From: an uncultured Candidatus Saccharibacteria bacterium
Lineage (GTDB): Bacteria; Patescibacteriota; Minisyncoccia; UBA6257; XYB1-36-10
NCBI GenBank assembly: GCA_964362215.1
Contig: CAYIDJ010000002.1
Location: 911-64,910 of the forward strand
Length of the DNA stretch: 64,000 bases
Direction of reading: 5' to 3'
The position numbers and the translations under genes were made by a program. Of this stretch, positions 47,567 to 48,060 are shown piece after piece (position 1 is the first letter of the stretch; every line of letters starts with the position of its first letter). Under the pieces are notes generated by a model that was not told the DNA's origin, ran no database searches, and saw only the letters and a program-made list of their open reading frames with translations.

Positions 47567-48060
47567 AGCCAGTTGTAAGACAGCTACTGGATGCCTTAAA
47601 AAGTATCTAGAGGAAAGTCCGGACACCAGCCAGTGCTATGCGCTGGCTATGGATAGTCGCTAACGGCGACCGGGGGAAACTCCAGGGAAAGTGCAACAGA
47701 AAATATACCGCCGAACACTCAATTTATTGAGTGTTCGGTAAGGTTGAAATCGTGCGGTAAGAGCGCACGCGTTCTGGCCGTGAGGTTAGAATGTGGCAAA
47801 CCCTATCCGGTGCAAGGTCGTATTCCAGTGCTTCGCATTGGGAATATCAATAACTAAGAAACAATAGTACAAAAACATTCTCTTTATAGTTTTAATTTTG
47901 TGGTTTGATGTTTGTTTGGAATTTGTATCTTGGAATTTGGTGCTTCCAATGCGGAGCATTGGTCTGTGCCGCTTGACTCCGGCGCGCAAGCGCCGAAGCA
48001 GATAAATTGCTGTCATTCGCCGATGAGGCGAAACAGAATCCGGCTTATAAGCAACTGGCT
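47567..48060 (+). ncRNA. rnpB: RNase P RNA, bacterial type A, with a large AT-rich expansion
   Basis: P1 agccagttg/caactggct. Universal blocks GAGGAAAGTCCGGAC, AGTGCAACAGAAA, GGTAAG..GTGCGGTAAGAGCGCAC, GCAAACCC, ACAGAATCCGGCTTATAAGC. P18 has a GCAA tetraloop. Confidence 0.9.

Follow-up and report, generated by a model that had tools for sequence, protein, structure and literature searches.

A clamped 138-nt hairpin in place of the P16 tip of RNase P RNA in a bacterium of the Candidate Phyla Radiation

We analysed 64,000 nt of contig CAYIDJ010000002.1 (assembly GCA_964362215.1, positions 911 to 64,910 of the forward strand), deposited as an uncultured Candidatus Saccharibacteria bacterium (GTDB lineage Patescibacteriota; Minisyncoccia; UBA6257; XYB1-36-10). 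This whole stretch is called the window below, and positions are counted from its first letter. The window carries rnpB, the gene of RNase P RNA, in which a long hairpin of 138 nt, closed at its base by two GC-rich clamps, stands in the place of the tip of helix P16. The hairpin is a derived replacement of that tip, and the ribozyme core, helix P15 and the internal loop L15 are unchanged. In the reading that we consider probable, an element resembling the intervening sequences (IVSs) of 23S ribosomal RNA (rRNA), coming from a dispersed family of heptamer hairpins, replaced the P16 tip and is tolerated there as a passive extension. The first-pass annotation of this DNA had described an expansion of about 100 nt at the tip of the P15-P17 arm and had named a retained expansion, an excised IVS and a degenerate mobile insert as options; these can be narrowed by the clamp matches reported below.

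The hairpin in place of the P16 tip

The gene matches the bacterial type-A RNase P RNA family of Rfam, RF00010, at 214.5 bits (cmscan; gathering score 100), with model positions 1-367 of 367 covered, and its type-A membership follows from a score above the curated gathering threshold across the full model. The conserved P4/core strings GAGGAAAGUCCGG, near the 5′ end, and ACAGAAnCCGGCUUA, near the 3′ end, are both there with high posterior probability. The length of about 495 nt given by the first-pass annotation was thereby borne out, the model placing it at 496 nt. A consensus scan gave a promoter-like site that stops 7 nt before rnpB begins, and downstream of the gene there is a strong terminator-like hairpin. 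Together with the full-length model match, these two sites make rnpB look functional. For RsmH and MraZ, the best matches carry the names Patescibacteria, Liptonbacteria, Paceibacterota or Parcubacteria, and therefore the assignment of the window to the Candidate Phyla Radiation (CPR) holds.

Between model positions 245 and 246, in the P16/P17 part of the P15-P17 arm, where the expansion had been proposed, about 100 nt are treated by the covariance model as an insertion; in the RF00010 alignment, which had been named as a check, these bases are not placed in normal helices. The insertion opens past P15 (GGUC) and the first strand of P16. At its base, ccagtgcttcgcattgggaa at 47825-47844 pairs with 47944-47962 in 17 contiguous pairs and 2 more. 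Both strands of the flanking helix described earlier thus exist and pair, and its 3′ strand was placed correctly; its 5′ strand, given as 47834-47853, was 9 positions off. The segment within the base helix measures 99 nt (47845-47943), for which about 90 nt of AT-rich sequence had been claimed, and its AT-richness is clear from a G+C content of 28% for 47854-47943, compared with 51% in the remainder of rnpB and 47.6% in the whole window. The direct repeat reported earlier, TTGGAATTTG, is found twice in the 3′ arm, at 47916-47925 and 47930-47939 (direct-repeat family D2).

The 138 nt from 47825 to 47962 are predicted to form a single irregular hairpin of -52.7 kcal/mol (z = -7.65), and 0 of 200 shuffles folded as well; with the P15 flanks the values are -60.3 kcal/mol and z = -6.6. 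In this fold, 47825-47843 and 47944-47962 are joined by 19 contiguous predicted pairs. Each clamp is a near-palindrome. The loop UUC of the 5′ clamp is complementary to the loop GGA of the 3′ clamp, and therefore the clamps pair along their full length. The two clamp regions (47823-47841 and 47944-47962) also have 79% identical direct similarity over 19 nt, because both copies are near-palindromes. The clamp helix re-creates the base of P16, with L15 and P15 kept as in the relatives. The arms above it follow a period of 7 nt, which Tandem Repeats Finder reports with 3.7 copies and 68% match for 47915-47940.

The relatives of the window were reached via the neighbouring mraZ-rsmH genes, and two of them could be examined at the P16 site. 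The closest, L001 (RsmH 90% at the amino-acid level), has the same gene order. The outgroup, L246 (MraZ 69%, RsmH 57%), keeps the order PGK-DHHA1-RNase H-rnpB-mraZ. Their rnpB genes measure 356 nt (L001) and 345 nt (L246), and a P16 hairpin of 16-19 nt is found in each where the window has its 138-nt hairpin, in agreement with the earlier statement that the enclosed sequence has no counterpart. The two related genomes do not have the length of the window gene, and the earlier reading of an expansion at the arm tip is supported. The distribution of the insert is sporadic, as it is absent from both L001 and L246; with the closest relative and an outgroup without it, the insert is therefore derived in the lineage of the window. 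Judged by this comparison, the insert is recent.

The divergence between the window and L001 is distributed unevenly along the gene. The rnpB core has 301 matches and 10 mismatches, corresponding to 3.2% divergence, and nearly all other change lies in three hairpin tips, namely those of P12, of P16 (47825-47962) and of a hairpin at the P19 position. On the 5′ side of the element, one base of 47816-47824 differs and the rest is identical; on the 3′ side, 47963 to 48014 shows 100% identity. In the P16 stem itself, 6 of the 18 aligned positions are mismatched and another 121 columns are gaps. This divergence is far above the core rate, which suggests that the tip was replaced, and not that the hairpin drifted or that sequence was added to an unchanged hairpin. 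The tip of P12 has 7 matches, 11 mismatches and 8 gap columns in the same comparison.

The fold of the element differs between the strands. In the rnpB sense it contains 11 G·U pairs, whereas the antisense strand reaches -26.6 kcal/mol with 0 G·U pairs. When the 5′ arm is compared with the reverse complement of the 3′ arm, 7 transition differences keep G·U pairing in the rnpB sense and 1 gives an A·C mismatch. This asymmetry suggests selection on an RNA helix in the sense of rnpB.

Table 1. Features of rnpB and its insert in the window, and the rnpB genes of two relatives (coordinates of the relatives refer to their own loci).
Feature	Coordinates	Strand	Details
Promoter-like site TTGACA, 18-nt spacer, TAAAAT	47531..47560	+	consensus match only, 11/12
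rnpB, bacterial type-A RNase P RNA	47568..48063	+	Rfam RF00010
P12 tip, lineage-specific perfect AT-rich palindrome	47712..47737	+	8 nt longer than in L001, sequence replaced
P15 5′ strand GGUC (47816-47819) and 5′ side of L15 internal loop GUAUU (47820-47824)	47816..47824	+	covariance-model alignment
5′ GC clamp CCAGUGCUUCGCAUUGG	47825..47841	+	at the site of the relatives' short P16 hairpin; pairs full-length with the 3′ clamp
A/C-rich 5′ arm, degenerate nnnnCAA heptamers	47842..47889	+	minimum-free-energy fold, autocorrelation
Apical loop, unpaired	47890..47897	+	minimum-free-energy and centroid structures
U/G-rich 3′ arm, TTGnnnn heptamers	47898..47943	+	Tandem Repeats Finder, direct repeats
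3′ GC clamp UUCCAAUGCGGAGCAUUGG	47944..47962	+	with the 5′ clamp, 19-bp base helix, functionally P16
3′ side of L15 loop UCUG (47963-47966) and P15 3′ strand UGCC (47967-47970)	47963..47970	+	covariance-model alignment
Extra small hairpin UUCGCC GAUGA GGCGAA, P19 position	48015..48035	+	absent from L001; 13 gap columns
Terminator-like hairpin, then T run	48072..48109	+	13-bp stem with 8 G-C pairs, then CTTTTT
rnpB of L001	1156-1511		P16 CCUCGCGCUUCGCGCGAGG
rnpB of L246	8931-9275		P16 CCUAUCUUCGUGUAGG

Similar hairpins in other RNA genes

Genome and metagenome contigs were scanned with an internal pattern of 24 nt taken from the insert, TTGGAATTTGNNNNTTGGAATTTG, which gave at least 120 matches per collection. 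Among the matches listed, three of 240 loci have the pattern inside structured RNA genes: L119, L095 and L185. Each of these carries one long hairpin with z between -8 and -11.5 (-10.1 and -11.5 for L119 and L095). In all three, as in the window element, the autocorrelation at lags 7 and 14 lies above 2000 of 2000 shuffles.

The hairpin of L119, from a member of Saccharibacteria, is 99 nt long and lies in the 3′ domain of 23S rRNA, in the region of helix 98 (H98) just past E. coli position 2782. Its layout is that of CCAGTGCTTCGCACTGG, an A/C arm, a loop, a U/G arm and TTCCAGCGCGGAGCGCTGG. The 5′ end, CCAGTGCTTCGCACTGG at 75-91, is identical to the 5′ clamp of the window in 16 of 17 positions, and the 3′ end is identical to the 3′ clamp in 15 of 19; both ends exceed 1000 of 1000 zone-preserving shuffles. 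L095, from a member of Falkowbacteria, is itself an rnpB gene (560 nt, 1141-1700, minus strand), in which the tip of P12 carries a hairpin that has this layout too and is about 170 nt long. Its 3′ end, TTCCATTGCGAAGCGTTGG, agrees with the 3′ clamp of the window in 16 of 19 positions, again above 1000 of 1000 shuffles. Further features of the L095 rnpB are an insertion of 39 nt in the P14 loop region and additional bases in P3.

L185 has a heptamer hairpin of 145 nt at helix 9/10, a classical IVS site, between positions 131 and 178 of the E. coli 23S rRNA. The comparison of its arms gave 9 differences that keep G·U pairing against 2. It was rejected as a homologue of the window element, being the same kind of hairpin with similarity that is not significant outside the searched pattern. 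The 5′ part of 23S in L185 (1-848, minus strand) holds two further insertions, one of about 110 nt around model position 312 and one of 60 nt around 424, neither visibly heptamer-periodic. We therefore treated L119 and L095 as related elements on the strength of their ends; L185 was counted only as similar in kind. The comparison with the rRNA-gene insertions of CPR bacteria that the first-pass annotation had drawn is apt, in that related hairpins do occur in CPR 23S rRNA genes. The ends of the insert match inserts in the 23S rRNA and in the rnpB P12 of other CPR lineages, which makes a dispersed IVS-like element more likely than a purely local expansion.

The exact 24-mer TTGGAATTTGGTGCTTGGAATTTG was found in at least 22 loci from many phyla, among them Bacteroidota, Planctomycetota, Aminicenantes, Thermodesulfobacteriota, Stahlbacteria and CPR members. 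In most of the matches listed it makes up the 3′ arm of a long hairpin whose 5′ arm is A/C-rich and whose 3′ arm is U/G-rich. Long hairpins of TTGGnnn heptamers are widespread among the same matches (L003-L242), for example in L016 (3100-3300), L109 (6150-6345), L140 (3240-3435), L189, L240 and L224. Several genomes have 2-3 of the listed matches, many of which lie at contig ends. Also among these matches, 46% of the pattern sites lie under long open reading frames (ORFs), compared with 85% of control positions. In the 33 of these loci that were scanned against Rfam, no family covered the pattern sites. The TTGGnnn hairpin family is apparently undescribed.

Searches for the element in other settings gave no further relatives. 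Two clamp patterns run against viral contigs returned 0 and 15 matches, and all 15 were chance matches in coding DNA, without heptamer arms. The element had no blastn match among plasmids and phages, and the arm alone, searched against Rfam at E-values up to 10, gave weak hairpin-type chance matches only, mostly to microRNA precursors. A group I or group II intron was rejected, as there is no Rfam intron match at gathering thresholds or at E-values up to 10 and 138 nt is too short. A peptide-coding insert was likewise rejected: the ORFs at 47786-48016 (minus strand) and 47912-48097 (plus strand) overlap conserved rnpB helices and have no homologues, and a protein search with a spurious insert-spanning ORF of 76 amino acids found no homologue. 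The only other strongly 7-nt-periodic stretch of the window, 14874-14905, consists of the four heptamers AATTTTC AATTATC AATTATC AATTTTC in a 55-nt spacer between two ORFs, apparently ABC-transporter genes, and forms no hairpin.

Origin and fate of the element

The probable course of events may be outlined as follows. Dispersed heptamer-periodic hairpins exist, and clamped versions of them would have settled independently in helix tips of CPR RNAs, in the H98 region of 23S rRNA in a member of Saccharibacteria, in P12 of rnpB in a member of Falkowbacteria and in P16 in the window; this origin from a dispersed family is suggested because of the clamp identities. The element would be transcribed within rnpB. 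P17 appears to be absent in the clade, and with it presumably the contact to P6, which may leave a solvent-exposed P16 tip free. An extension pointing outward from this tip would spare the catalytic core and the tRNA-binding surface and could be tolerated as a passive helix. The GC clamp would secure the native base of the helix, and selection may keep the arms paired, which would prevent them from competing with the folding of the ribozyme.

Several observations weigh against this picture. Plain (TTGGAAT)n microsatellites make up 79 of the 240 matches listed, the pattern being too loose; with about one third of the matches of this kind, the family resemblance could partly be convergent low-complexity sequence. 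The loci were retrieved by the insert's own pattern, so the similarity of the arms is biased and the clamps alone are independent evidence. The 5′ part of the L095 hairpin has no significant similarity to the window element in zone shuffles, and neither has the L185 hairpin outside the searched pattern. The G·U counts are low (7 against 1). The same P16 insert was not found in a second genome, two relatives being examinable at the site, and therefore the fold is without covariation support, its basis being one sequence, thermodynamics and the G·U asymmetry. The 64-kb window holds no other copy of the element, and no transposase and no clear target-site duplication were found at it, so mobility is read only from similar ends in unrelated host genes.

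The alternative that stands up best is a true excised IVS, which we consider unlikely. RNase III, or some other nuclease specific for double strands, would cut the 19-bp clamp and the hairpin would be degraded, leaving an RNase P RNA of about 260 nt and about 100 nt held together non-covalently, as in 23S rRNA at helices 9, 25 and 45. The sequence-level hallmarks of IVSs (PMC4990558) are all there, namely a stem-loop in place of a capped helix, complementary termini, a lower G+C content (28% vs 51%) and no such insert in close relatives; L185 has a hairpin of this kind at the classical 23S helix 9/10 site; and most CPR rRNA-gene insertions are predicted to be removed from transcripts, as PMC9297842 states with reference to Brown 2015. 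However, the pairing of the arms is kept through G·U pairs far past the clamp, which would be expected of a retained structure no less than of a discarded piece. No RNase III signature was found in six-frame translations of the 64-kb window, a result that is uninformative for the whole genome. That M1 RNA can be reassembled from fragments in vitro speaks for this alternative; against it, a naturally split RNase P RNA is, to our knowledge, not known from bacteria. A bolder combination, in which one clamped heptamer-hairpin family moves among helix tips of CPR RNA genes (23S and at least two RNase P helices) and is also excised in rnpB, giving a two-piece RNase P, appears to us quite unlikely.

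A purely local origin is improbable in our judgement. The native P16 would have grown by replication slippage of 7-nt units and fold-back (palindromic) duplication, and the likeness to hairpins elsewhere would be convergence of TTGGnnn repeats capped by GC hairpins with a UUCG-like loop. The arms are indeed degenerate heptamer repeats, (TTGGAAT)n microsatellites are as common among the listed matches as stated above, and the P16 hairpins of L001 and L246 also have a CUUCG-type loop, so that the GCUUCGC core could be native; the lack of another copy in the window points the same way. In addition, heptamers of the short tandemly repeated repetitive (STRR) type are said to lengthen helix P12 of cyanobacterial rnpB. 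Against slippage stand the clamps, which lie outside the search pattern: the 5′ clamp agrees in 16 of 17 positions with that of an insert found in another gene and another CPR class, and the 3′ clamp in 16 of 19 with a third case. Furthermore, the P16 stem differs from that of L001 far more than the 3.2% of the core, and slippage alone does not predict TTGGAATTTGGTGCTTGGAATTTG in so many loci of many phyla, mostly as the 3′ arm of a hairpin.

An assembly artefact or chimera, with repeat-rich reads misjoined within rnpB, is hardly credible: hairpins and low-complexity repeats can mislead assemblers, and many family members among the matches listed lie at contig ends, but this insert is in the middle of a 64-kb contig, its bounds fall exactly at the helix that restores P16 with L15 and P15 intact, its arms carry RNA-sense G·U compensation, and the same architecture is found in other RNA genes from independent assemblies.

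Surroundings, known systems and meaning

The gene order around rnpB is kept in close relatives only. No rnpB was found beside mraZ in L002, L244, L247 and L248, and in L243 the rnpB (1-118) is inverted and leaves the contig after 116 nt. Where rnpB lies between the RNase H gene and mraZ, its orientation varies: the window and L001 have it on the mraZ strand, L243 and L246 on the other one. Upstream of rnpB, about 740 nt of the window (46783-47525) have no counterpart in L001, the blastn similarity ending at 46782 and restarting at 47526; this stretch includes an ORF for an 86-amino-acid cysteine-rich protein (46927-47187) with a good AGGAGG ribosome-binding site ahead of it.

At the border of the element, G47961, G47962 and U47963 form a GGU that is a possible tRNA-CCA-binding motif, and both G are predicted to pair with C47825 and C47826. 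The tRNA genes of the window at 51694-51766 and 55870-55943 bear on whether this L15 motif is used. The tRNA-Gln (ttg anticodon) has its 3′ CCA encoded; the tRNA-Glu (ctc anticodon) has no CCA, its discriminator A being followed by CAA. The P17 columns of RF00010 are deleted in L001 and are filled in the window by insert sequence at low posterior probability only. The missing P17 does not exclude type-A membership, as P16/P17 loss is common in CPR bacteria (PMC8172020).

Five known systems can be set beside the window element. One is formed by the RNase P RNAs of other CPR bacteria, for which large helix extensions including an extended P15 have been described and many of which have no P13, P14, P16 or P17 (Lui, Nielsen and Arkin 2021, PMC8172020); S5 Fig of that paper concerns an 'extended P15 helix' in SRX2838984_bin_5. 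The host group, the gene and the P15-arm region are the same as here, and in both cases a type-A core needs manual refolding around a large peripheral extension. Unlike in the present analysis, the extension figures in the parts of that paper that deal with it as a structural oddity, without sequence anatomy, insert-free relatives or a link to rRNA insertions, and it is set beside the window element by description only.

Heptanucleotide STRR repeats lie inside rnpB of heterocyst-forming cyanobacteria, according to the title of Vioque 1997 (Nucleic Acids Res 25:3471) as listed in PMC2858038. As in the window, units of 7 nt reportedly make a peripheral helix of the type-A RNA longer there, and the extension is lineage-specific and dispensable in kind. 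The likeness extends to the L095 element, which lies in P12 itself, and to TTGG-type heptamers such as TTGGTCA in L119. The window element differs in its position at P16, its degenerate repeats, its conserved GC clamps, its CPR host and its related copies in 23S rRNA.

The IVSs of 23S rRNA are extended stem-loops in place of small tetraloops at helices 9, 25 and 45, which are sporadic in distribution and are removed by RNase III; they are known from Salmonella, Yersinia, Campylobacter, Leptospira, Coxiella and Alphaproteobacteria (PMC4990558). The window element shares with them a stem-loop of about 100 nt in place of a capped tip, complementary termini, a G+C content below that of the host gene and a sporadic presence in close relatives. 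Except for the host gene, it has every IVS feature that can be read from sequence. It is unlike them in residing in rnpB and in its heptamer periodicity, which is not a described IVS feature, and the likeness is one of sequence alone.

In CPR bacteria, rRNA genes show a tendency to take up extra sequence in structured RNA genes, which the window element shares. Many of these insertions are introns with homing-endonuclease ORFs. Insertions of at least 100 nt occur in 77% of CPR 23S rRNA genes (Tsurumaki 2022, PMC9297842), and the insertions of CPR rRNA genes amount on average to 0.6-1.2 kb per gene; the window element, in contrast, is a non-coding hairpin of 138 nt in rnpB. Short mobile repeats are also comparable: miniature inverted-repeat transposable elements (MITEs), repetitive extragenic palindromes or REPINs, and small dispersed repeats of cyanobacteria (PMC3116915) are similarly short, non-coding and hairpin-forming, and, like the matches listed here, dispersed, with several in single genomes, and enriched outside long ORFs. 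Unlike MITEs and REPINs, the window element has no associated transposase, no defined target-site duplication and no second copy in the window. Its clamps could act as inverted termini.

Helix extensions in CPR rnpB (PMC8172020) and heptamer repeats in cyanobacterial rnpB were known already. New are the exact anatomy of the insert, its recency, the RNA-sense compensation, and clamp sequences shared with inserts that distant CPR lineages carry in 23S rRNA and in a different helix of rnpB. The finding is of moderate interest, which would rise sharply if excision gave a split RNase P RNA or if one family moved among RNA genes. If the hairpin is excised, it would be the first IVS outside rRNA and would yield the first natural split bacterial RNase P RNA; if it is retained, it would be a clean, datable case of an expansion segment being born. 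RNase P RNA serves as a marker of completeness, and its peripheral helices are regarded as architecture that evolves slowly. Between the window and L001, change is concentrated in three hairpin tips, one of which was swapped for an element with ends matching other CPR inserts. This explains the poor scoring of CPR rnpB by standard models and gives a sequence-level handle on how the oversized, odd structured RNAs of CPR bacteria arise.

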